Sequence record: PQ671645.1 | Direction: 5' to 3' (one strand) | From: Escherichia phage DCP548 | DNA: 64,000 nt | In this document: positions 5,928 through 63,153 of the stretch, piece by piece | How positions within the stretch are numbered: the stretch's first letter is position 1 | Layout of the letters: each line of letters starts with the position of its first letter | Translations under genes and position numbers: made by a program | The notes under the pieces: model-generated | Told to the model about the DNA's origin: nothing | Seen by the model: only the letters and a program-made list of their open reading frames with translations | Database searches by the model: none

Positions 5928-6269
5928 TTAAAAGAATTTAAATTTTTTCTTGGTCCGTTCATTAAAAGCTTGTTGTACTTGCATTGTAACACATTTTTCA
6001 ACATGTGGTGCAAGTTCTGCTTTTCTGTCCTGGTCAAGAACTGCAAAGTCCATTACGATTTTACCATCAACCCAGTCTAGTTTTGTAATATAGACTATAT
6101 GATGAGAACCATCTTCAAGTGTAATCAGAATCTCTTGAATGACATTTTCCATTGCTGAACGGATAATTTTAAGAGATTCATTAAACACTCGTTCTTTGCG
6201 AATGTCTTCCCCTTCCGAAGAAGGGGATTCATCAACGATTTCTAGATTTAAATCATCGAGATTATTCAT
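5928..6269 (-). CDS. 40: gp40-like head vertex assembly chaperone
   Basis: ORF-track frame 5928..6413 trimmed to the ATG at 6269 (MNNLDDLN...), overlapping the uvsX stop by 8 nt; call is by synteny between uvsX and 41. Confidence 0.55.
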   Translation of the reverse strand: MNNLDDLNLEIVDESPSSEGEDIRKERVFNESLKIIRSAMENVIQEILITLEDGSHHIVYITKLDWVDGKIVMDFAVLDQDRKAELAPHVEKCVTMQVQQAFNERTKKKFKFF

Positions 6270-7434
6270 CGAAATCTTCCATTTCGTCAAGGTCGTTTTC
6301 AATATCTGCTGCAGACGGAGCATCAGAAGCTTTAACAGGAACTTTAGTTGTTGCTTTGCAATTAATAAGGTCGTTAACAGCGTCATCAACTTCTTTAATA
6401 GAAGAGATAGCACCTAGTTTATATTTAGCTTCAATTGCATCTCGGAAAGGTTTGTGTTTAAACAACGGTCCCCAGAATTCTACACAATCAGTAGCTTTAG
6501 CACGCCATGATTTTTCTTCACGAATCATTTCACCTGTTTCTTCGTCAAGGAATTCACGAGCATACCAACCGGCTTTAGGCTTAACAACAAATCCAATTTC
6601 AGTTGCCATTTCTAACAAGCCACTGAATGGATCGATACCGCCGTCAAAATTAACCGTGATTGGGAAAGTAGATTTCTCTTTAACTGTACGAGATTTTTCT
6701 GCTTTCAACGTGAAGTCATAACCGGTCAATTCTGTACCTTCTTTAACCTGACGTTTAGAGATAAAGAATACAGTGTTAGCAGAGTAAAGAATACCTGTAC
6801 CACCACCCATAATCTCTTTAGGATATAGTCCGCCGATTTCCATTGCTGTATGGTTGATTGCAACACACGGAATATCTTTAATAGTCAGATAAGGAGTCAC
6901 AATACGGAACAGAGATTTAAGTGCCTTAGCACGAGACATATCACCTACGACTTTCTCGTTCAATGCATCTTCGGTTTCTTTCTTAGATGCAGTATTACCG
7001 ATTGAATCGATAAAGATAATAACTTTATCACCGCGTTCAATAGCGTCAAGCTGATTAGTCATATCAACTTTAAGTTGTTCGACAGACTGAATTGGTGTAT
7101 GAACTACGCGGTCCAAATCAACACCCATTGAACGGAAGTAAGATTCCGAAGCACCAAATTCCGAGTCATAAAACAAACAGATTGCATCTTTATATTTCTT
7201 CATATACGCTGCAACCATGGTCAGTCCAAACAACGTTTTAAAGTGTTTAGAAGGAGCAGCAAAAATAGTTAAGCCTGATTGCAACCCGGCATTCAGTGCA
7301 CCACCTAATGCAATATTCAACATCGGAATACGAGTAGGGACTTCATCACGATTATTAAACAGCTTAGACTTAGTCAAGTCTGCAGTCATTTTAGAAGTAG
7401 AAGCTTTAATCAGACGAGATTTTAAATCAGACAT
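6262..7434 (-). CDS. uvsX: UvsX RecA-like recombinase
   Basis: 390 aa, MSDLKSRLIKASTSK... near-identical in outline to remembered T4 UvsX. Confidence 0.93.
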   Translation of the reverse strand: MSDLKSRLIKASTSKMTADLTKSKLFNNRDEVPTRIPMLNIALGGALNAGLQSGLTIFAAPSKHFKTLFGLTMVAAYMKKYKDAICLFYDSEFGASESYFRSMGVDLDRVVHTPIQSVEQLKVDMTNQLDAIERGDKVIIFIDSIGNTASKKETEDALNEKVVGDMSRAKALKSLFRIVTPYLTIKDIPCVAINHTAMEIGGLYPKEIMGGGTGILYSANTVFFISKRQVKEGTELTGYDFTLKAEKSRTVKEKSTFPITVNFDGGIDPFSGLLEMATEIGFVVKPKAGWYAREFLDEETGEMIREEKSWRAKATDCVEFWGPLFKHKPFRDAIEAKYKLGAISSIKEVDDAVNDLINCKATTKVPVKASDAPSAADIENDLDEMEDFDE

Positions 7435-7533: not shown

Positions 7534-8082
7534 TTAACGAGCCCATTTGATAATTTCTGTAATCAAATTATTACGTTCGCTTGCATTAAATCCTATAACT
7601 TTGTTAGCACCATCATGATTAAGTAATTGATACGTTTGGATTTCGTTATGAATTGCAAACTCTTCAAAATATGAAATGACTGTATTAAAACCGAACGAAG
7701 ACAAAGTAATAAGGTCGTCTTCAAAACTTTCAGTCATTTCGTTACGTGTTAAAATAATTGTGAACACATCATGGTTTTGGCAAAGACGAACATAATCCTG
7801 TTCATAAACGTCAAGAACCGAGTCCGCATCTTGTCGAATACGTCCATAAACCCAGTTACTAATATATCCACGGTCTAACAGATAAATCTTAGTAGGGTCT
7901 AAATAATTCAACATCGTTTCGAAACAGCCAACTTCATTTCGAGACTTAACATCGAAACGTCCATCAACTGTTCGTTTAGGGAAATCAATCTTTACATATC
8001 TTTCACTAATTTCCATTATGTCATTAATGAAAGTTGTTTTACCAGCATTATCCGGGCCATCTACTAAAATAATTTTAGCCAT
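7534..8082 (-). CDS. P-loop kinase-like protein (dNMP/thymidylate-kinase-like fold)
   Basis: 182 aa; Walker A ILVDGPDNAGKTT and LLDRGYIS (DRY-like) motif; sits where T4 has beta-gt. Confidence 0.55.
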   Translation of the reverse strand: MAKIILVDGPDNAGKTTFINDIMEISERYVKIDFPKRTVDGRFDVKSRNEVGCFETMLNYLDPTKIYLLDRGYISNWVYGRIRQDADSVLDVYEQDYVRLCQNHDVFTIILTRNEMTESFEDDLITLSSFGFNTVISYFEEFAIHNEIQTYQLLNHDGANKVIGFNASERNNLITEIIKWAR

Positions 8083-8083
8083 T

Positions 8084-8983
8084 TTATTCCTCGATTACGA
8101 CATCTTCGTATTTAGGTATATTATACGGTGAAGAAATTAAAGCATTAAAGTAGATGAACTCACCAAGACCTGGATGGAATACTTCTTCAGGATTTTCGAA
8201 ATATTGAATCTTCGGACGTCCTTTAAGAATTTGATAGTACTCAGTTTTAGTTGGATTAAAAATTCGAATCAGCGCTTCTTCAGGATACTTATTTCTGTCG
8301 AAACTATTATTTGGATCAGTTATATAAAGCGGTTGACCTAATTGAATTGCGCATTCAACCACTTGTTCAAAACGATAGCATGGGTCACTAATTCGAAATG
8401 GATGAAAAATACCATCTAGATGAATAGGAGCCAAATCACCTACAAGACGCTGCATGACGGAAGGACGTATAACTTTCTGTGTTACGATAATCTTATTACC
8501 ATCCGCACCAGCGTTAACCAGCACTTCTTTTTGACGTTCATTCAACACAGTTGTTTGAAGTGAACGATTAACCGACAACATATCGGTTTTTAAGAATTCG
8601 TCAATATAAAAACGTGGTTTATTAGGGTCTGCGGTGATATTGAAATTGAATTCTACGTCAAAAGTGCCGTCATATCCAGTGATATCTGTGATTAGAAAAT
8701 CACAATCATAATAAGCAATTAATGAATCAACCACAAATTCATTTTCAGACCAGAAATATTTACGAGTGTTATACGCGTTATCTTTATACCATAATGGAAC
8801 AAACTTAAATTCCGGAAAAAGACGTTCACATTCTTTAATATCAGATGCATTACGTGGATATGTAATCACATCACCTGGATTAGCACGGTGCAAATGAAGT
8901 TGGAAGTTGCCATCCTTAAGGATAGCATACTGTCCAGTTTCATAAGACCGCATACTCAAGATAGGTACGCGGAAAATAGCCAT
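8084..8983 (-). CDS. hypothetical protein, candidate DNA sugar transferase (unsupported by motif)
   Basis: 299-aa ORF tightly coupled to gene 42 stop; no motif recognised; candidate role only by position in the glucosyltransferase slot. Confidence 0.45.
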   Translation of the reverse strand: MAIFRVPILSMRSYETGQYAILKDGNFQLHLHRANPGDVITYPRNASDIKECERLFPEFKFVPLWYKDNAYNTRKYFWSENEFVVDSLIAYYDCDFLITDITGYDGTFDVEFNFNITADPNKPRFYIDEFLKTDMLSVNRSLQTTVLNERQKEVLVNAGADGNKIIVTQKVIRPSVMQRLVGDLAPIHLDGIFHPFRISDPCYRFEQVVECAIQLGQPLYITDPNNSFDRNKYPEEALIRIFNPTKTEYYQILKGRPKIQYFENPEEVFHPGLGEFIYFNALISSPYNIPKYEDVVIEE

Positions 8984-9699
8984 TAGTCAAGGAATCCTTT
9001 AACATAATCAAAATCACGTTCAAACACATGGGCACTTACCATGGTATGAGTATAATCACCAACTTCTACACCGCATTCGTTAGCGATATAATGAAGTAAT
9101 TTTCCTTGGAGATAAAAATCCAACTGCATAACAACAGCACAGTTCTGAGAACGCATATGACAGTGGGTATAAAGCTTACCATCACGAATATAATAAGTCA
9201 CTGAGTCAGTACATGGATATTCAAGCGTTTCATCCGAATCAAGCAAAGCCTGATCTGAACTTTCAAGAATTTGAAACACAACTCTTCGTGAATTAGGTTT
9301 CTCTTTAAGTTCTTTGAGAAGAGCTGGTAACTGGGCCGCAATTCGTGGACCATAGAAAGTGTTGAAGTTCGCCGGCAAAACATCTGATTTTGGTTTAGAA
9401 ATAAATTTAGCGACATTAGGATACGCCTTAAACGCTTCTTCTGCGTTGGTACCACCAGAAATCATAAACTTCCAGAAATCTTCAGCATATTCATAAGAGA
9501 TGCGATTAATACGTGGGTCGGTCATTTTGAATGATGAAGGGGTATCAACAACTACTGTCATAGACCCAATTTCATTACAACGTCCAATACGAGAATCAGT
9601 TACGAATTCCGGGTTTTCTAAAATTTCACGATTGACAGCTTTAAATGCGGATTGAAAATCTGCGGCTTTAATATATTTCATTGTGTTATGTTTTCCCAT
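8983..9699 (-). CDS. 42: deoxycytidylate 5-hydroxymethyltransferase gp42 (thymidylate-synthase family)
   Basis: 238 aa; TS-family core RRVVFQ and catalytic Cys context YPCTDSVTYY; synteny. Confidence 0.8.
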   Translation of the reverse strand: MGKHNTMKYIKAADFQSAFKAVNREILENPEFVTDSRIGRCNEIGSMTVVVDTPSSFKMTDPRINRISYEYAEDFWKFMISGGTNAEEAFKAYPNVAKFISKPKSDVLPANFNTFYGPRIAAQLPALLKELKEKPNSRRVVFQILESSDQALLDSDETLEYPCTDSVTYYIRDGKLYTHCHMRSQNCAVVMQLDFYLQGKLLHYIANECGVEVGDYTHTMVSAHVFERDFDYVKGFLD

Positions 9700-9977: not shown

Positions 9978-11138
9978 TCATTCTGGGTACCTCAAAGCGT
10001 CGTCAGAGTTAGTTATATCAATAATAGATATAGAATTTTCTGATAACCCATTTTTAGATAACTGACGTTTATAATATCTTTCACAATATGTACACGTCGT
10101 CCCGCAGATTTCATTAGCACAATCGAAATCTGGATGTTTGAACCACCTTTTTTCTAAAAAGCCATCTAACAAAGAGGTTTCAATATTTACCGTATGTGAA
10201 AACTCGGTCTCATTTTCAAGAGTGAAAATGGTCTCTAAAGGCTTCCACAATTCCAACAAATTACCTTCAAATTTTTCAGAAGCATAAGCTTCAAGAACTT
10301 TCAAAATGTAGTCTGTGCTACCTGTACGTCCTGAAACTTTGAATTGAGTGATACCAATATCATTATAAAGTTTCAAATCTTGAGGACGAACAAAACGAGT
10401 TCTCAACCAGTTAAATGGGTCTGTATCACGAGCTTTAATACAGTGCTGCATAGGATATCCGTTTAAGGATTTAGCATCATCAGCTGTAACATCAGTACTA
10501 TGGAAAATATAGCAAGAGTCACGATAGCTACAATGTGTTGTATACCCTTTACCAGCATTAGAACAGAACTCATTTACAAGAACTTCAAATATTATATTGT
10601 TCTTATTACAAAACTCTGCTGCACGCTTCAGGAAAGAAACTGAACGGTTCTTATGAATTCCACAGCAGACCTTTTTGATATTATATTGGTCGTGCAAGTA
10701 TTTGATTTGAGTTACAGCATCGACATGTAGAATTGTTGAAACTTCAATCTCAATGTCTTTATTGACTTCACGAACAATTTCCATAACAACAGGGTTAGCG
10801 ATAGTAATACGCCATACGCCTATTGACCAAAGATACTGAACATAATCCTGAATAGCTTTCTTCTTCCACTCAACTAGTTCTCTTTTTGAACCAGGATTTA
10901 TCGTGTTGAGTGTATAGTTAAAGCAAATACCTAATTCGTTACAACGTTTAACGTAATCTTCTAACATCTTTTTGTCAACGTCAGGAAGCCTAAAATCAGG
11001 TCTGGCTGCTACAAAAGCCATTTCTCTTGTAGAGCCGTATACTTCATTTATCAAGCTATTAGGATAAGTTTTATTGAGCTCTACGATTTTATCAAGAAGA
11101 GCTAAATCAAAATTCGTTCCGATTTTAAAGGTATTCAT
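9978..11138 (-). CDS. Cys-rich enzyme of unknown function (possible Fe-S protein)
   Basis: 386 aa; C-terminal FDCANEICGTTCTYC (C-x4-C-x3-C-x2-C) plus EFCSNAGKGYTTHCSYRDSC; first gene downstream of the sugar-pathway genes. Confidence 0.5.
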   Translation of the reverse strand: MNTFKIGTNFDLALLDKIVELNKTYPNSLINEVYGSTREMAFVAARPDFRLPDVDKKMLEDYVKRCNELGICFNYTLNTINPGSKRELVEWKKKAIQDYVQYLWSIGVWRITIANPVVMEIVREVNKDIEIEVSTILHVDAVTQIKYLHDQYNIKKVCCGIHKNRSVSFLKRAAEFCNKNNIIFEVLVNEFCSNAGKGYTTHCSYRDSCYIFHSTDVTADDAKSLNGYPMQHCIKARDTDPFNWLRTRFVRPQDLKLYNDIGITQFKVSGRTGSTDYILKVLEAYASEKFEGNLLELWKPLETIFTLENETEFSHTVNIETSLLDGFLEKRWFKHPDFDCANEICGTTCTYCERYYKRQLSKNGLSENSISIIDITNSDDALRYPE

Positions 11139-11192: not shown

Positions 11193-11594
11193 TTATAGAT
11201 TCGGTTTATATGATTTAAATGTTTCGAATTCGCCTTTATTCATAAGAGCTTTGAATTCGTCAGGACGCATAGCTTTGTCGTCGATAATCCAATCATATAC
11301 TGGTTTATGTGTTAGCAAATTATGGTACTTCAAGCCAATGTTTGCCAAGTTCTGAATCAGACTTGGGAGAATGTCAATTGCTATACGGCCAGGACCTACT
11401 GACTTCATACCGCGAGCAGTGTAAAGCGTTATTGTATGCCCTGCATCATACAGGGCATTAATGGCAGACACCATTTCGACGTCTGGTTTGAAGTTCACGT
11501 AATCACGATTGTTATTCCACTCTGTTATACAATCATCGACATCAAAACAAAGATTAAGCATGTTTTCTACACGGTGCATTAGATTCGTTCCCAT
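11193..11594 (-). CDS. HAD-superfamily phosphatase, KdsC-like
   Basis: 133 aa; motif I FDVDDCI, later TARG and K...DD motifs. Confidence 0.6.
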   Translation of the reverse strand: MGTNLMHRVENMLNLCFDVDDCITEWNNNRDYVNFKPDVEMVSAINALYDAGHTITLYTARGMKSVGPGRIAIDILPSLIQNLANIGLKYHNLLTHKPVYDWIIDDKAMRPDEFKALMNKGEFETFKSYKPNL

Positions 11595-13264
11595 TGATGA
11601 GTGATATCGCCACCGATTGGACGATAGGAAACACCAGTTTCTTTATCAGTTAGTACCCATTTACCAGGATTTTTTGTAATCAGAGTAGCCGTTACAGGTT
11701 CTGCTACGTCATAACTAATAGAGCCGTCCTGAAGTACACGGCCCATGTTACGTAATTGCTTAGTCAGAAGTTCCATACCTTTATAATATGCGGCTACCGC
11801 TTTAAGTGGATTATTCTTGAAATAACCACCTAATGCAATCCAGATAATTGCCACTGCCAAATGATGATACTCGTTAAACGAACTCATCTTTCCATATTTG
11901 TAAACTAATGGATTGATGTTAATAGTCACATTACAAGTTGTTTCATCAATAGTAAATTGCCCCCAGGTCGGATTAGCATTGAATTCATCATAACCTGAAA
12001 CAGCATAAAGCACTTTAGCTTCATCATACAATTTTGGCCCATAAATCTTGGTTTCGCCAAAATATCCACGAGGGTCGATAAACTTGACTTCACCATTATC
12101 AGTAATCATAGTATTACTAAAGTTCGGGTCACCATGAATAACAGAGTACTGTCCCTGAGAACGGTTATGATAACGAATAAGGTGTTCTAAAGCTTGTTTC
12201 AGCATTGGCTTCAGACGCCCAATCTTAGTGTAGTTCACATGTGTGATTTTACCAAATGAATCAATCAATGGTTGAATACTTTCACAACGATCAATAACTT
12301 TCGTATAGAACTCTTTAGTGAAATCACGACGAACAGTTTCAGGACTTACAAAATAAGTGTCTGTGCTGAATTTCAGTGCGTCTAAAATTGCATCAACAAT
12401 TTGTGGACGAGCAAGACTTGATTTGGATTTAATATATTCAAATGCCGGCTTACCTTTAATGCGTTCCATTTCAAAGTTATTTTCATTAACAGAAACTAAC
12501 TGAGGAACTGAATCTGATTTCACTTTAAGATACCATGAAATCTCATCTTTCTGAAGAGCTCGGCCCTGTTCGGTTAATGCGAATTTAGTTACAGTTTCTT
12601 CACCGATTTCAACTGCATTAAAACTACGATTAAGTTCACGAACTTCATGAGCCTTTTCAAGTTTAGGCATATCACCTAAATCAATTAGATTCATAAGCTC
12701 TGATTTATTGAATGCGCTGCCGTAAAGGAATTCTACGAAATCACGTCCTTTGCAGTATTCATGAATTTCCTCATCAGTAGAACCCATATAGAATTCCCAG
12801 TCTTTGAACTGATAAATTCCTACAACATTACCACCTGTTGAACCTACGTTAGTGATATTTTCACCGTCGAAATTATATCGACATTCGTCACCCTTAACAT
12901 AGATTGCGTTAACATTCCAAGACCATGAACCAAAATCGGGAATAATATCACACCAGTTAACAATTACATTATGGCCGTCTAAATCTTTGTGCAATTTAGC
13001 AAGAGCATAAGCAGAACCATATGCTTCATCAACTGTACGAATAGTCACATTGAACCCTTCTTGCTCACAATAAGCTCGAACAGTTTCAGCAAATTTTGAA
13101 TGAACTACTACAATAATTTCGTCTGCGCCAAGGTCAGAATAAATTGTATACAAATTGCTCAGAATAGTGTCTTGTTTATAGTTAACAAGCACCTTAGGAA
13201 TATGATGCGTTATTGGATACAAACGAGTTGCCAGTCCAGCACCAAGAATAACAGCTTTTTTCAT
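11579..13264 (-). CDS. bifunctional sugar-1-phosphate nucleotidyltransferase / kinase (LicC-LicA-like fusion)
   Basis: 561 aa; N-terminal ILGAGLATRLYPIT...PK (GxGxRL nucleotidyltransferase signature); C-terminal HGDPNFSN and FIDPRG (Brenner and DFG-like kinase motifs). Confidence 0.65.
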   Translation of the reverse strand: MKKAVILGAGLATRLYPITHHIPKVLVNYKQDTILSNLYTIYSDLGADEIIVVVHSKFAETVRAYCEQEGFNVTIRTVDEAYGSAYALAKLHKDLDGHNVIVNWCDIIPDFGSWSWNVNAIYVKGDECRYNFDGENITNVGSTGGNVVGIYQFKDWEFYMGSTDEEIHEYCKGRDFVEFLYGSAFNKSELMNLIDLGDMPKLEKAHEVRELNRSFNAVEIGEETVTKFALTEQGRALQKDEISWYLKVKSDSVPQLVSVNENNFEMERIKGKPAFEYIKSKSSLARPQIVDAILDALKFSTDTYFVSPETVRRDFTKEFYTKVIDRCESIQPLIDSFGKITHVNYTKIGRLKPMLKQALEHLIRYHNRSQGQYSVIHGDPNFSNTMITDNGEVKFIDPRGYFGETKIYGPKLYDEAKVLYAVSGYDEFNANPTWGQFTIDETTCNVTININPLVYKYGKMSSFNEYHHLAVAIIWIALGGYFKNNPLKAVAAYYKGMELLTKQLRNMGRVLQDGSISYDVAEPVTATLITKNPGKWVLTDKETGVSYRPIGGDITHQWERI

Positions 13265-13305: not shown

Positions 13306-13449
13306 CTAGTTAAAGCATTCATACTTTGCTTGTAGTCCAATCATAATCCATCCAATTACAAGTGTTGGAATCATTACCGGAGCCGTTAAGCTCCAGTAGA
13401 TAGTCATGACAAGCATCAATAGTAAAAGTCCTATTGTTATTGCTTTCAT
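13306..13449 (-). CDS. small hydrophobic peptide (47 aa)
   Basis: Hand-found: ATG overlaps the isomerase stop (ATGA); MKAITIGLLLLMLVMTIYWSLTAPVMIPTLVIGWIMIGLQ...; below ORF-track size cut-off. Confidence 0.35.
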   Translation of the reverse strand: MKAITIGLLLLMLVMTIYWSLTAPVMIPTLVIGWIMIGLQAKYECFN

Positions 13450-14081
13450 TGTTCGCCTCGTAACATGGCACCTAGTGCACCGCCAGGGTGGAACTTAAGG
13501 AAATCATTAGAGGTAAATCCACGTTCAGACGAAAGGTTGATAGCAAACGTATCGATAAGCGCTAACAACAATGTAGTGGACATTGTCGGAGCTAAAGAGT
13601 TCTCGTCAACTTCTACAGCGATACCGGTACAGAACGTATAATCAAAAAGAGCTTCGTATTCTTGTGGAATGTCAGGGTTACAATGCAACAGAATCTGTTT
13701 GACGTTCGGACGAATCATTTTAAGATGCTTAGCCACGCCTATCATTTCTTCAGTTTTACCAGAACGACTAATATGAATCAACACATCATTAGGCGCAATG
13801 AATCCTGCATCACCGTGAGAATAATGCCCGGTGTTCAAGTACATACTCGGGATACCGAGTGAAGCAAATGTCTCAGAAGCTTTAGTTGCGATATTAGCGT
13901 TCTTACCAACACCTGTAATAATTACACGACTTTCATAATTACTAAGTCCAGGGCGTCGAAGAGTTTCTAGAATAGCATTATAACGAGCAGGGTTTTGACT
14001 AATTACTTTGGCCATAGCGGCCAAAGAAGAAGCTTGTTTTATGATTGCGTCAATAGCGATAGTAATAGGAGTAGTTTTCAT
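13446..14081 (-). CDS. SIS-domain sugar-phosphate isomerase, arabinose-5-phosphate isomerase-like (KdsD/GutQ)
   Basis: 211 aa; GVGKNANIATK SIS motif and C-terminal FHPGGALG characteristic of KdsD/GutQ. Confidence 0.7.
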   Translation of the reverse strand: MKTTPITIAIDAIIKQASSLAAMAKVISQNPARYNAILETLRRPGLSNYESRVIITGVGKNANIATKASETFASLGIPSMYLNTGHYSHGDAGFIAPNDVLIHISRSGKTEEMIGVAKHLKMIRPNVKQILLHCNPDIPQEYEALFDYTFCTGIAVEVDENSLAPTMSTTLLLALIDTFAINLSSERGFTSNDFLKFHPGGALGAMLRGEQ

Positions 14082-62418: not shown

Positions 62419-63153
62419 TTACCTTAAGATTGTTTCAATTTTAGAATAAAGCTCTTCTAAAGAGCCGTCGTTTGTAATAACTAAATCGCCTTCTTCAATA
62501 GGCAACCCAGCTTCTGTAATATGTTTATCAACGGATTCCGTACCAGAGCGAACCACATGAATAACTGTAGCACCCATCGCTCTAGCGGTTTCCATTTCAT
62601 GGACTTGGCGTGTATCGGTTACAACATAGTAATCGAAATCACTTCCAATATAATCCATATAGTTTAATGCAAAAAGTTTAACCCAATACATACGGTCAAA
62701 TAAATTAACGACAACATCCGTACCGAGGGCTTGCATAAGACGGCGGATTGACCATGTGTCGTTGATATTATTTATAGCTTCACGCAGGGCTTCGTATGGT
62801 TTAATATCTAGATATGAATATCCACCTTCTAACGATGATAATACTTTAACATTATTAATTGGTAAATATTGACTTTGTAAATAAATTAGCGCTTCTTCCA
62901 ATAATTCAATAACATCCAACTTATTGAGATTTAATGGCGTTTCACGGTCGTATCCAATGCCTTCAAAGTATTCGTATTTCAACTCTGTGAATACATCAGG
63001 ATTTTCAGCATGCCTACGTCCCCAGGCTATTGCTAGAGCGTCTTTAATTGGATATGCTAATTGGTATTTTACGGATTTAAAGTTTGAATTGATGTAATCA
63101 GCAGTAGTGTCTTTACCACTACGTTTGATGCCACTTAAAAAGATTAGCTCCAT
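62419..63153 (-). CDS. 1: deoxynucleoside monophosphate kinase gp1
   Basis: 244 aa; MELIFLSGIKRSGKDTTADY..., RRLMQALGTD, VIHVVR, LVITNDGSLEEL match remembered T4 gp1. Confidence 0.93.
   Translation of the reverse strand: MELIFLSGIKRSGKDTTADYINSNFKSVKYQLAYPIKDALAIAWGRRHAENPDVFTELKYEYFEGIGYDRETPLNLNKLDVIELLEEALIYLQSQYLPINNVKVLSSLEGGYSYLDIKPYEALREAINNINDTWSIRRLMQALGTDVVVNLFDRMYWVKLFALNYMDYIGSDFDYYVVTDTRQVHEMETARAMGATVIHVVRSGTESVDKHITEAGLPIEEGDLVITNDGSLEELYSKIETILR

Follow-up and report, generated by a model that had tools for sequence, protein, structure and literature searches.

A putative glycosyltransferase and a thymidylate-kinase-like protein downstream of a 5-hydroxy-dCMP synthase in a Mosigvirus genome

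We consider it fairly probable that the two genes situated between uvsX (6262..7434, an open reading frame) and a thymidylate synthase (ThyA) homologue, in the 64,000-nucleotide stretch of DNA analysed here (the window), are the last two members of a hydroxylase-glycosyltransferase-kinase core, in which the first arabinose would be attached at the level of DNA and the kinase would act on a C5-modified dCMP. This conserved and tightly packed core (5-hydroxy-dCMP synthase, followed by a GT-B glycosyltransferase and a thymidylate-kinase-like kinase) would form part of the Mosigvirus cluster through which virion cytosine is replaced by mono- and di-arabinofuranosyl-5-hydroxycytosine. Work by others on 97-99% identical proteins established that the ThyA homologue places a hydroxyl on C5 of dCMP with flavin and O2, that a gp1-like kinase phosphorylates 5hodCMP and 5hodC reaches DNA, and that the SIS, AfhE-like and HAD proteins lead from ribulose-5-phosphate to UDP-arabinofuranose (PMC13326640). 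The 299-aa GT-B enzyme would draw on UDP-Araf to place the first arabinofuranose, in alpha linkage, on cytosine's 5-hydroxyl (most likely on replicated DNA, by analogy with the T4 glucosyltransferases), and a second glycosyltransferase, of the RB69 ORF003c type and encoded outside the window, would attach the second one. In turn, the 182-aa kinase would phosphorylate a C5-modified deoxycytidine monophosphate with ATP (most simply 5hodCMP to 5hodCDP), being dedicated to the hydroxylase module and, in T4-like phages, overlapping in part with gp1. The functional predictions for RB69 gp46:47 and gp45 are already known (PMC13326640 predicts alike), and our finding largely re-derives publications from 2025-2026.

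The modification is of practical interest, as RB69-like phages with arabinosyl-5-hydroxycytosine DNA are common in phage-therapy collections and withstand many restriction enzymes; papers in which Mahler et al. 2025 is cited credit the modification, in addition, with protection from type I CRISPR-Cas and from the glycosylase Brig1. The 299-aa glycosyltransferase and the 182-aa kinase represent the least characterised steps of the arabinosylation pathway, and no published reconstitution of an enzyme that joins a sugar to C5 of cytosine through an aryl-type O-glycosidic bond was found in the literature covered.

Gene arrangement and the neighbouring ThyA homologue

The stretch derives from a Mosigvirus (97-98% identity to RB69, SSE1 and JS09). 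On its minus strand, the gene for the ThyA homologue (238 aa, 8983..9699) is followed by that of the glycosyltransferase (299 aa, 8084..8983; orthologue of RB69 gp46:47, ‘arabinosyltransferase 1’, of DLP3 gp79 and of Thanatos TH1_063) and by that of the P-loop kinase (182 aa, 7534..8082; orthologue of RB69 gp45 and DLP3 gp78). The ATG of the 299-aa gene overlaps the stop codon of the upstream gene (TAATG), and a single base lies between its own stop and the kinase ATG (TAAAATG). The initial annotation, made from the letters alone, had placed both reading frames correctly, with the right lengths and with the kinase motifs GPDNAGKTT and LDRGYIS, which we locate at residues 9-17 and 69-75, and had rightly noted that the 299-aa start abuts the stop of the upstream gene; its statement that T4 carries beta-glucosyltransferase in this slot held as well, with the omission of segA, which shares the interval (uvsX - segA - b-gt - 42). 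A diverged b-gt in the slot was ruled out, since the T4 gene has no sequence similarity in the window (tblastn, no match at E<=1e-3). As 138 homologues of the 299-aa protein were retrieved at E<=1e-3 (about 36% being the lowest identity among the matches listed), and 155 sequences are matched by the profile of the kinase family, sequence conservation identifies both as real genes and not chance open reading frames.

The upstream neighbour had been taken for gene 42 (hydroxymethylase), and hydroxymethylcytosine (hmC) for the acceptor; our results contradict both. The 8983..9699 product matches Pfam Thymidylat_synt (2.4e-15) and PDB entries 9iqc/9ir2/9iqu (E 3e-161), which we infer to be the hydroxylase of phage HY126 (their title in the PDB table being just ‘Thymidylate synthase’). 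It is identical at 235 of 238 positions to RB69 gp48, whose activity as a flavin/O2-dependent 5-hydroxy-dCMP synthase has been demonstrated (PMC13326640), and differs from T4 gp42 both in overall sequence (just 24.8% identity) and in signature residues, as it carries L143E, D169N and N177D, whereas D169 is retained in T4 gp42. With asparagine where E. coli ThyA has D169, the homologue is ruled out as a maker of hmC, and on these sequence grounds we regard it as a 5-hydroxy-dCMP synthase, not a dCMP hydroxymethylase. Since the neighbour makes 5-hydroxy-dCMP, the acceptor would be 5-hydroxycytosine and not hmC; the sugar would be D-arabinofuranose instead of glucose.

The rest of the arabinosylation cluster lies further upstream on the same strand. 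It comprises a 386-aa peptidase-U32-family protein (9978..11138; RB69 gp50; Pfam Peptidase_U32 7e-11, PHROG 5757, weak UbiU match at 9e-4), a 133-aa HAD-like phosphatase (11193..11594; RB69 gp51, HY126 AfhF; PHROG 1238, PDB 9iqw at E 8e-88, 1xpj), a 561-aa bifunctional nucleotidyltransferase and kinase (11579..13264; RB69 gp52:53, HY126 AfhE; Pfam NTP_transferase 8.5e-10, weak kinase-family matches, PHROG 4098) and a 211-aa SIS-domain protein (13446..14081; RB69 gp55), the last being a predicted arabinose-5-phosphate isomerase on the basis of the literature and of phmmer, which retrieved RB69 ORF055c at 1e-137 together with the PF01380 SIS genes of two related loci (L002 and L005). HY126 AfhF, as cited in PMC13326640, removes the 5-phosphate from arabinofuranose-1,5-bisphosphate, and the AfhE-type protein makes UDP-arabinofuranose, with sugar phosphorylation assigned to its C-terminal domain (PMC13326640). 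Of the 48 related loci, 17 have the peptidase-U32-family gene, in no case alongside a Flavodoxin_2-like gene.

The 299-aa glycosyltransferase

By sequence the 299-aa protein is nearly silent: neither Pfam (at E<=0.1) nor NCBIfam gave a match, a PDB search with the family profile returned no glycosyltransferase at E<=10, and its sole family match was PHROG 3891 (‘unknown function’, 1.4e-155, full length), in agreement with the earlier remark that it bears no recognisable motif. It is 98% identical to both halves of RB69 gp46:47, which the RB69 GenBank record splits through one extra T and which corresponds here to an intact single reading frame. AlphaFold2 gave an unusable prediction from the single sequence (pLDDT 36) and a usable, confident model from a 59-sequence alignment, in which two Rossmann-like beta/alpha/beta domains face a cleft in a GT-B arrangement, and whose top structural matches were retaining GT4-type enzymes and also T4 alpha-GT. 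Structure prediction, proposed in the initial annotation as a check for a glycosyltransferase fold, thus returned one, and we conclude from the model that the protein has a GT-B glycosyltransferase fold.

The GT4-type retaining enzymes (sucrose-phosphate synthase 6kih, BshA, MshA and PimA) have no detectable sequence similarity to the 299-aa protein, and their EX7E motif is not evident in its family, which possesses instead an invariant H270-P-G followed by E or D at 275. At the possible EX7E site, whose register is tentative, the C-terminal stretch reads H270-P-G-L-G-E275-F-I-Y278; across the family alignment H270, P271 and G272 never vary, E or D stands at 275 in 59 of 59 sequences, and position 278 is occupied by Y, H, F or V. 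The N-terminal domain contributes a further invariant set (R12, S13, Y19, K23-D-G-N26, R33 and R74). The family is acidic, with a median pI of 5.1 (vs 9.05 for T4 beta-GT), a weak pointer as to whether DNA or a nucleotide is the acceptor, since RB69 ORF003c, a presumed DNA-acting enzyme, is itself slightly acidic. In comparison to T4 beta-GT (GT63) and alpha-GT (GT72), which have 351-400 aa, a hydroxymethyl acceptor and UDP-glucose as donor, the smaller 299-aa enzyme would employ the phenol-like 5-OH of cytosine and UDP-arabinofuranose, presumably with DNA as the acceptor.

We therefore present it as a predicted base-proximal arabinofuranosyltransferase on 5-hydroxycytosine. The initial annotation's view of it as the candidate DNA sugar transferase is strengthened by the GT-B fold and by its published standing as base-proximal transferase candidate (PMC13326640). 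Lee et al. (NAR 2026, PMC13326640) predict gp46:47 to be arabinosyltransferase 1 and gp45 to be a nucleotide kinase, with neither activity shown, and we see no substantive difference between the two proteins described here and RB69 gp46:47 and gp45 (or DLP3 gp79/gp78 and Thanatos TH1_063). A search for published activity of either protein type found none, within a literature set that excludes two possible direct tests (He et al. 2026 and Mahler et al. 2025). That a transferase elsewhere in the genome might speak against the 299-aa protein had also been foreseen: a second one does exist outside the window, with rIIA on one side and a topoisomerase gene on the other (RB69 ORF003c / Bas46 Aat / HY126 glycosyltransferase, PDB 9iqz and 9ir0, 366 aa), and does not refute the candidate, its proposed task being the addition of the second arabinose (PMC13326640). 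It belongs to a different family from the 299-aa protein (BLASTP E 2.1 at best).

The 182-aa kinase and its genomic company

The 182-aa protein matches PHROG 761 (‘thymidylate kinase’) at 5e-45, is 99% identical to RB69 ORF045c (gp45), and carries a P-loop of the form GxxxxGK[ST] (G9-P-D-N-A-G14-K15-T16), in which G9, G14 and K15 are invariant, as are D11, F34, K36, D70, R71, S75, N76, Y79, R113 and D122 elsewhere in the family alignment. Searched against the PDB, the family profile retrieved vaccinia thymidylate kinase (TMPK; 2v54, E 1e-5), YorR (2axp, 6e-5) and 5uiv (1e-4), its alignment to solved thymidylate kinases spanning positions 4-161 and keeping the P-loop, FP.R and DR..S..Y in register; in the vaccinia alignment DRYAFSGVAY falls with the D70-R71 stretch and FPQR with FPKR. 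The profile was required for this, since phmmer with the 182-aa sequence alone returned P-loop noise only. Similarly, Pfam Thymidylate_kin (PF02223) had no match to the protein itself at E<=0.1, and was matched by 13 of 19 family members (best 2.9e-6), all below the gathering threshold. The likeness to thymidylate kinases obtained with the family profile is new here, and together with PHROG 761 and the sub-threshold Pfam matches it bears out the thymidylate-kinase-like character ascribed to the protein in the initial annotation.

The family has the P-loop, FP-x-[RK] and DR-x-x-x-S-x-x-Y in common with thymidylate kinases (PF02223; vaccinia TMPK 2v54 and SPbeta prophage YorR), and differs from them in being shorter, in lacking a clear arginine-rich LID (R113 alone is invariant), in scoring below the Pfam threshold, and in occurring almost only beside a 5hodCMP synthase and glycosyltransferase pair. 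We accordingly predict, from sequence, a (deoxy)nucleoside-monophosphate kinase whose substrate would be 5-hydroxy-dCMP or a derivative thereof. We found no published assay of gp45-type proteins; the gp1-type kinase alone has been assayed, RB69 gp159 (the canonical gp1-type phage kinase) having been shown to convert 5hodCMP to 5hodCDP (PMC13326640). As a T4 gp1-like dNMP kinase is likewise encoded in the window (62422..63153, minus strand; tblastn with T4 gp1, 62.7% identity over 244 aa, E 5e-95), the 182-aa protein would be the second nucleotide kinase there, a point that is also new.

In a sample of 48 evaluable related loci (viral and metagenome contigs), a ThyA homologue was present in 45 and immediately upstream of the glycosyltransferase in 40, and the kinase was present in 46 and adjacent in 35. 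Furthermore, 15 loci in which searches for three arabinose-activation genes found nothing retain the kinase with hydroxylase and transferase, most of them in the order [Flavodoxin_2]-ThyAh-GT-kinase. As the kinase is kept in these 15 loci, it appears to be tied to the base and glycosyltransferase module and not to arabinose activation; its co-inheritance with hydroxylase and transferase across loci has, as far as these sequences allow, been recognised here for the first time. The initial annotation had left the kinase substrate as either a nucleotide or a sugar intermediate, of which the latter is disfavoured by this pattern. The two loci without a separate kinase showed no fusion of glycosyltransferase and kinase (‘Rosetta stone’): one has a HAD-GT fusion (L056) and the other a UDP-galactopyranose-mutase-like neighbour (L058).

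The first acceptor and other readings of the two genes

The reading set out at the beginning is supported by the 98-99% identity to RB69 gp45 and gp46:47, the confident GT-B model, the profile matches to thymidylate kinases, the 5hodCMP-synthase signature, the synteny, the like arrangement of this glycosyltransferase and kinase in the Thanatos phages, and the agreement with the predictions of PMC13326640. Against it stand the in vitro negatives of DLP3 and TH1_063, the lack of a glycosyltransferase family match by sequence and the acidity of the family; moreover, a gp1-like kinase accepting 5hodCMP is already in the window, which would leave a second one without obvious need.

The alternative that the 299-aa enzyme arabinosylates free 5hodCMP, that the 182-aa kinase handles the resulting arabinosyl-5hodCMP (too bulky for a gp1-type kinase, which would refuse it), and that arabinosylated dCTP is polymerised into DNA, is in our judgement unlikely. 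It would account for the near-invariant abutting trio of hydroxylase, glycosyltransferase and kinase, for a second kinase (suggestive of a distinct substrate) where a gp1-like one already serves 5hodCMP, and for a glycosyltransferase family that is acidic when T4 beta-GT is not. Among solved structures the kinase profile fits vaccinia TMPK best; this enzyme accepts dUMP analogues with bulky 5-substituents, and we take a second PDB entry for it (2w0s) to be its complex with such an analogue. In vitro, 5hoC-DNA was not arabinosylated by single DLP3 glycosyltransferases supplied with either UDP-Araf or UDP-Arap, and according to the authors transfer of the first sugar onto the mononucleotide or onto DNA cannot be told apart (PMC13326640); these negatives, however, are given as ‘data not shown’ and could be technical. 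Hydroxylase and gp1-type kinase alone, when expressed, put 5hodC into DNA, later arabinoses go on at the DNA level, and that paper describes as post-replicative every phage base-glycosylation characterised on a hydroxylated pyrimidine (PMC13326640). Phages devoid of a gp1-type kinase, furthermore, would need a module kinase simply for 5hodCMP. Were glycosylation of the free nucleotide true, a glycosylated base would here, for the first time, reach phage DNA via the nucleotide pool, and this would explain why a second kinase is joined to the hydroxylase-transferase pair even beside a gp1-type kinase. Whether nucleotide or DNA is the first acceptor decides if the T-even model (DNA made, then decorated) fits the whole modification class, and the answer would also guide the enzymatic synthesis of glycosylated DNA.

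Our preferred reading, with the 299-aa protein as the first arabinosyltransferase, also has to be set against results from the Thanatos phages (one pentose per cytosine), in which glycosyltransferase and kinase occur in a matching arrangement (the Thanatos-2 protein is 48% identical to the 299-aa protein, and the Thanatos-1 counterpart is TH1_063). TH1_063 produced UDP-xylose from xylose-1-P and UTP in vitro, and transferred nothing to plasmid DNA, dCMP, dCTP or cytosine (PMC12838424), from which it could be argued that the 299-aa protein forms a UDP-pentose and that another protein performs the first transfer. We deem this very improbable: the modelled fold is GT-B and not that of a nucleotidyltransferase (GT-A-like), the 561-aa AfhE-like neighbour already has a dedicated nucleotidyltransferase domain, none of the acceptors in that study bore a 5-hydroxyl (PMC12838424), and the reaction could reflect a GT-B enzyme running in reverse or phosphate chemistry. 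Thanatos, moreover, is described as having a single ara-GT, syntenic with the 299-aa type, and no other (PMC13326640).

That the 182-aa kinase phosphorylates a non-nucleotide substrate (some sugar intermediate or, within DNA, cytosine's 5-hydroxyl) can be invoked from the example of 5-hmdU DNA kinases in thymidine hypermodification, from the sub-threshold standing of the protein itself among thymidylate kinases and from the gp1-like 5hodCMP kinase already at hand, yet it is scarcely credible given that the profile alignment takes in the NMP-site motifs (FP.R and DR..S..Y), that the kinase persists where searches for arabinose-activation genes came back empty, that the AfhE-like protein has a C-terminal domain to which sugar phosphorylation is already allotted, and that a phosphorylated 5-hydroxyl would presumably block glycosylation instead of aiding it.

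Gene order and the RB69 precedent

The initial annotation had placed two ORFs, of 182 aa (motifs GPDNAGKTT and LDRGYIS) and 299 aa, in the slot held by beta-gt in T4, and both the ORFs (minus strand, 7534..8082 and 8084..8983, respectively) and the slot are as it described: T4 reads uvsX - segA - beta-gt - 42 in the matching interval, so that the positional argument is correct. In the window, uvsX (6262..7434) lies after the kinase gene, and a thymidylate-synthase-like gene (ThyA homologue; 8983..9699, minus strand) lies upstream of the 299-aa glycosyltransferase (GT) gene. Almost no spacing is left within the trio: the ThyA homologue stop overlaps the GT start in TAATG, and a single base separates the GT stop from the kinase start in TAAAATG.

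A 7.1-kb stretch shares 97.6-98.4% identity with Shigella phage SSE1 and with Escherichia phages ST0, JS09 and APCEc01, as it does with about 150 further records, while RB69 (genus Mosigvirus) matches at 97.0% over 7534-9699 (2.2-kb query). The kinase is 99% identical to RB69 ORF045c, and the GT matches ORF047c in its N-terminal part and ORF046c in its C-terminal part, each at 98% identity. This RB69 gene is split because of one extra T in GenBank record AY303349 (alignment column 545; locus L001 6551..7451 aligned as DNA to window 8084..8983), whereas the GT is a single ORF in the window and in all other homologues; the split (gp46:47) is regarded as a sequencing error (PMC13326640).

A recent report describes mono- and di-arabinofuranosyl-5-hydroxycytosine in RB69 DNA (Lee et al., NAR 2026, PMC13326640), the earlier view having been arabinosyl-hmC (PMC6024577). 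In RB69, 5-hydroxy-dCMP (5hodCMP) is made by the ThyA homologue gp48, a synthase that depends on flavin and O2; gp159, a kinase of the gp1 type, phosphorylates it to 5hodCDP, and co-expression of gp48 and gp159 yields 5hodC in E. coli DNA (PMC13326640). Activity was demonstrated there for neither gp45 nor gp46:47, and the phage DLP3 GTs, assayed singly, gave no product on 5hoC-DNA (PMC13326640). As the transferase and kinase assignments were published, as predictions, for RB69 proteins 98-99% identical to those of the window, they are already known; the survey of related loci is new to the present analysis.

The upstream neighbour had been taken for gene 42, a reading that its sequence contradicts: the ThyA homologue shares only 24.8% identity with T4 gp42, as against 235/238 identical residues with RB69 gp48, and carries L143E, D169N and N177D (E. 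coli ThyA numbering). D169 is kept in T4 gp42, and D169N has been published as a predictor of 5hodCMP synthases. PDB entries 9iqc, 9ir2 and 9iqu also match (E 3e-161); we infer that they represent the HY126 hydroxylase, since their sole title in the PDB table is 'Thymidylate synthase'.

The transferase and kinase families

Neither Pfam nor NCBIfam gave a match for the 299-aa protein, PHROG 3891 (function unknown; E 1.4e-155) being its only family match. An AlphaFold2 model built with 59 homologues (alignment A1) reached pLDDT 95.4 and pTM 0.90 (pLDDT 36 in a single-sequence run); it matched MshA, 6kih and UDP-GlcNAc 2-epimerases in Foldseek (E about 1e-6) and, as best full-length match among viral models, the Acinetobacter phage KARL-1 homologue (TM 0.95). 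Given these matches of a confident model, the protein is predicted to adopt a GT-B fold, most like retaining GT4 enzymes. No sequence link to any known GT family was detectable (Pfam; family profile against PDB), and the profile search found no solved structure for the family in the PDB. The deposited HY126 glycosyltransferase structures (9iqz, 9ir0) are of the RB69 ORF003c type (E 5e-249), not of this family; neither an ORF003c-type GT nor its neighbours rIIA and topoisomerase matched within the window. Across the 59 sequences 30 columns are invariant; the N-terminal domain contributes R12, S13, Y19, K23-D-G-N26, R33 and R74, among others, and the C-terminal domain R197, K246 and H270-P-G. 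The textbook EX7E motif of GT4 enzymes is not evident. The family is consistently acidic, with a median pI of 5.14, a median net charge of -11 and only 3/59 members above pI 7 (T4 beta-glucosyltransferase, pI 9.05), which is odd if its substrate is DNA, as would be expected.

The Shewanella phage Thanatos-2 homologue TH2_066 (L007 4209..5111; 48% identity), counterpart of Thanatos-1 TH1_063, bears the GenBank note 'putative RNA polymerase binding protein', which looks wrong, as TH2_066 belongs to this GT-B family.

The 182-aa protein matched PHROG 761 'thymidylate kinase' (E 5e-45), its sequence alone giving only P-loop noise against Pfam and PDB. A profile of 19 family members (A5, including three from distant contigs at 25-28% identity) matched vaccinia thymidylate kinase 2v54 (E 1.1e-5, positions 4-161), SPbeta prophage protein YorR (E 6e-5) and thymidylate/uridylate kinase 5uiv (E 1.2e-4), with the P-loop, FPKR (FPQR) and DRGYISNxVY (DRYAFSGVAY) aligned; moreover, Pfam Thymidylate_kin matched 13/19 members below threshold. 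These alignments and matches uphold the thymidylate-kinase-like annotation and favour a nucleoside-monophosphate kinase over a sugar kinase. A gene for a T4 gp1-like dNMP kinase also lies in the window (62422..63153, minus strand; 62.7% identity to T4 gp1), so that the 182-aa protein would be the phage's second nucleotide kinase.

Conservation of the locus

We scanned 51 viral-contig loci, collected by GT profile, and several metagenome contigs with distant homologues, using the GT and kinase HMMs and the window's neighbouring proteins; counts refer to the 48 loci with enough flank. The ThyA homologue was present in 45 (immediately upstream of the GT in 40) and the kinase in 46. In 35 of these the kinase adjoins the GT; elsewhere it often sits with the HAD gene on one side and the U32 or ThyA gene on the other. 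Searches with the AfhE-like, HAD and SIS proteins recovered one or more arabinose-activation genes in 32/48, and 15 loci kept the kinase with none of these three found; most of the 15 read Flavodoxin_2-like gene - ThyA homologue - GT - kinase, and their contigs do not look clearly T4-like. The kinase is thus linked to the base-modifying pair rather than to sugar activation, which argues against a sugar intermediate, one of the two substrates initially suggested for it.

Both kinase-less loci are special cases. In L056 (5452..7107, an AT-rich viral contig) an N-terminal HAD-phosphatase-like domain is fused to the GT (551 aa), SIS and AfhE-like genes follow, the opposite strand carries an FMN-reductase-like gene upstream, and the kinase HMM detected no kinase in the locus. 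In L058 (3615..6201), where the same scan found none near the GT, the order is ThyA homologue - GT homologue - 317-aa FAD-type protein like UDP-galactopyranose mutase (assigned solely from its N-terminal dinucleotide-binding motif), which suggests a possible galactofuranose variant like Rhizobium phage RL38J1, a galactofuranose user (PMC13326640).

Proposed route and further genes of the locus

The transferase fold and the thymidylate-kinase-like protein of the initial interpretation stand, but its glycosylation of hmC does not: the chemistry here is arabinosylation of 5-hydroxycytosine. The best supported account, which we consider probable, has five steps. The hydroxylase would convert dCMP to 5hodCMP (demonstrated for near-identical proteins); 5hodCMP would be phosphorylated by the gp1-type kinase (demonstrated) and presumably by the 182-aa kinase; the modified nucleotide would enter DNA; the 299-aa GT-B enzyme would presumably attach a first alpha-arabinofuranose, donated by UDP-Araf, to the 5-hydroxyl; and an ORF003c-type GT, as others propose, would add the second.

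Alternatively, 5hodCMP itself would be the GT acceptor and the kinase would act on the arabinosylated nucleotide. The tightly joined hydroxylase-GT-kinase trio, the redundant second kinase, the negative GT assays on DNA in vitro and the acidity of the family (median pI 5.1 vs 9.05 in T4 beta-GT) fit this reading, the main rival, but 5hodC is polymerised directly and later sugars go on at the DNA level, and we regard it as unlikely. UDP-xylose was the reported product of TH1_063 when given xylose-1-P and UTP, and DNA, dCMP and dCTP were left unmodified (PMC12838424); that the GT is a UDP-pentose-forming enzyme seems improbable nonetheless. A non-nucleotide kinase substrate is the least credible option, given the profile matches to nucleotide kinases.

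A peptidase-U32-family gene (RB69 gp50; 9978..11138, minus strand, in the window) occurs in 17/48 related loci and a Flavodoxin_2-like (FMN-reductase-type) gene in 12/48, where in most cases the 5hodCMP synthase gene comes directly after it; the two co-occur in 0/48 (pattern listed for L002, L004 and L036-L049, beside the window). The U32 family includes the O2-independent hydroxylases RlhA, TrhP and UbiU/V. As the window protein also has a weak UbiU match, it might allow 5-hydroxycytosine to be formed anaerobically or help the flavin enzyme; RB69 gp50 is given only as 'sugar or heterocycle reductase' (PMC13326640).
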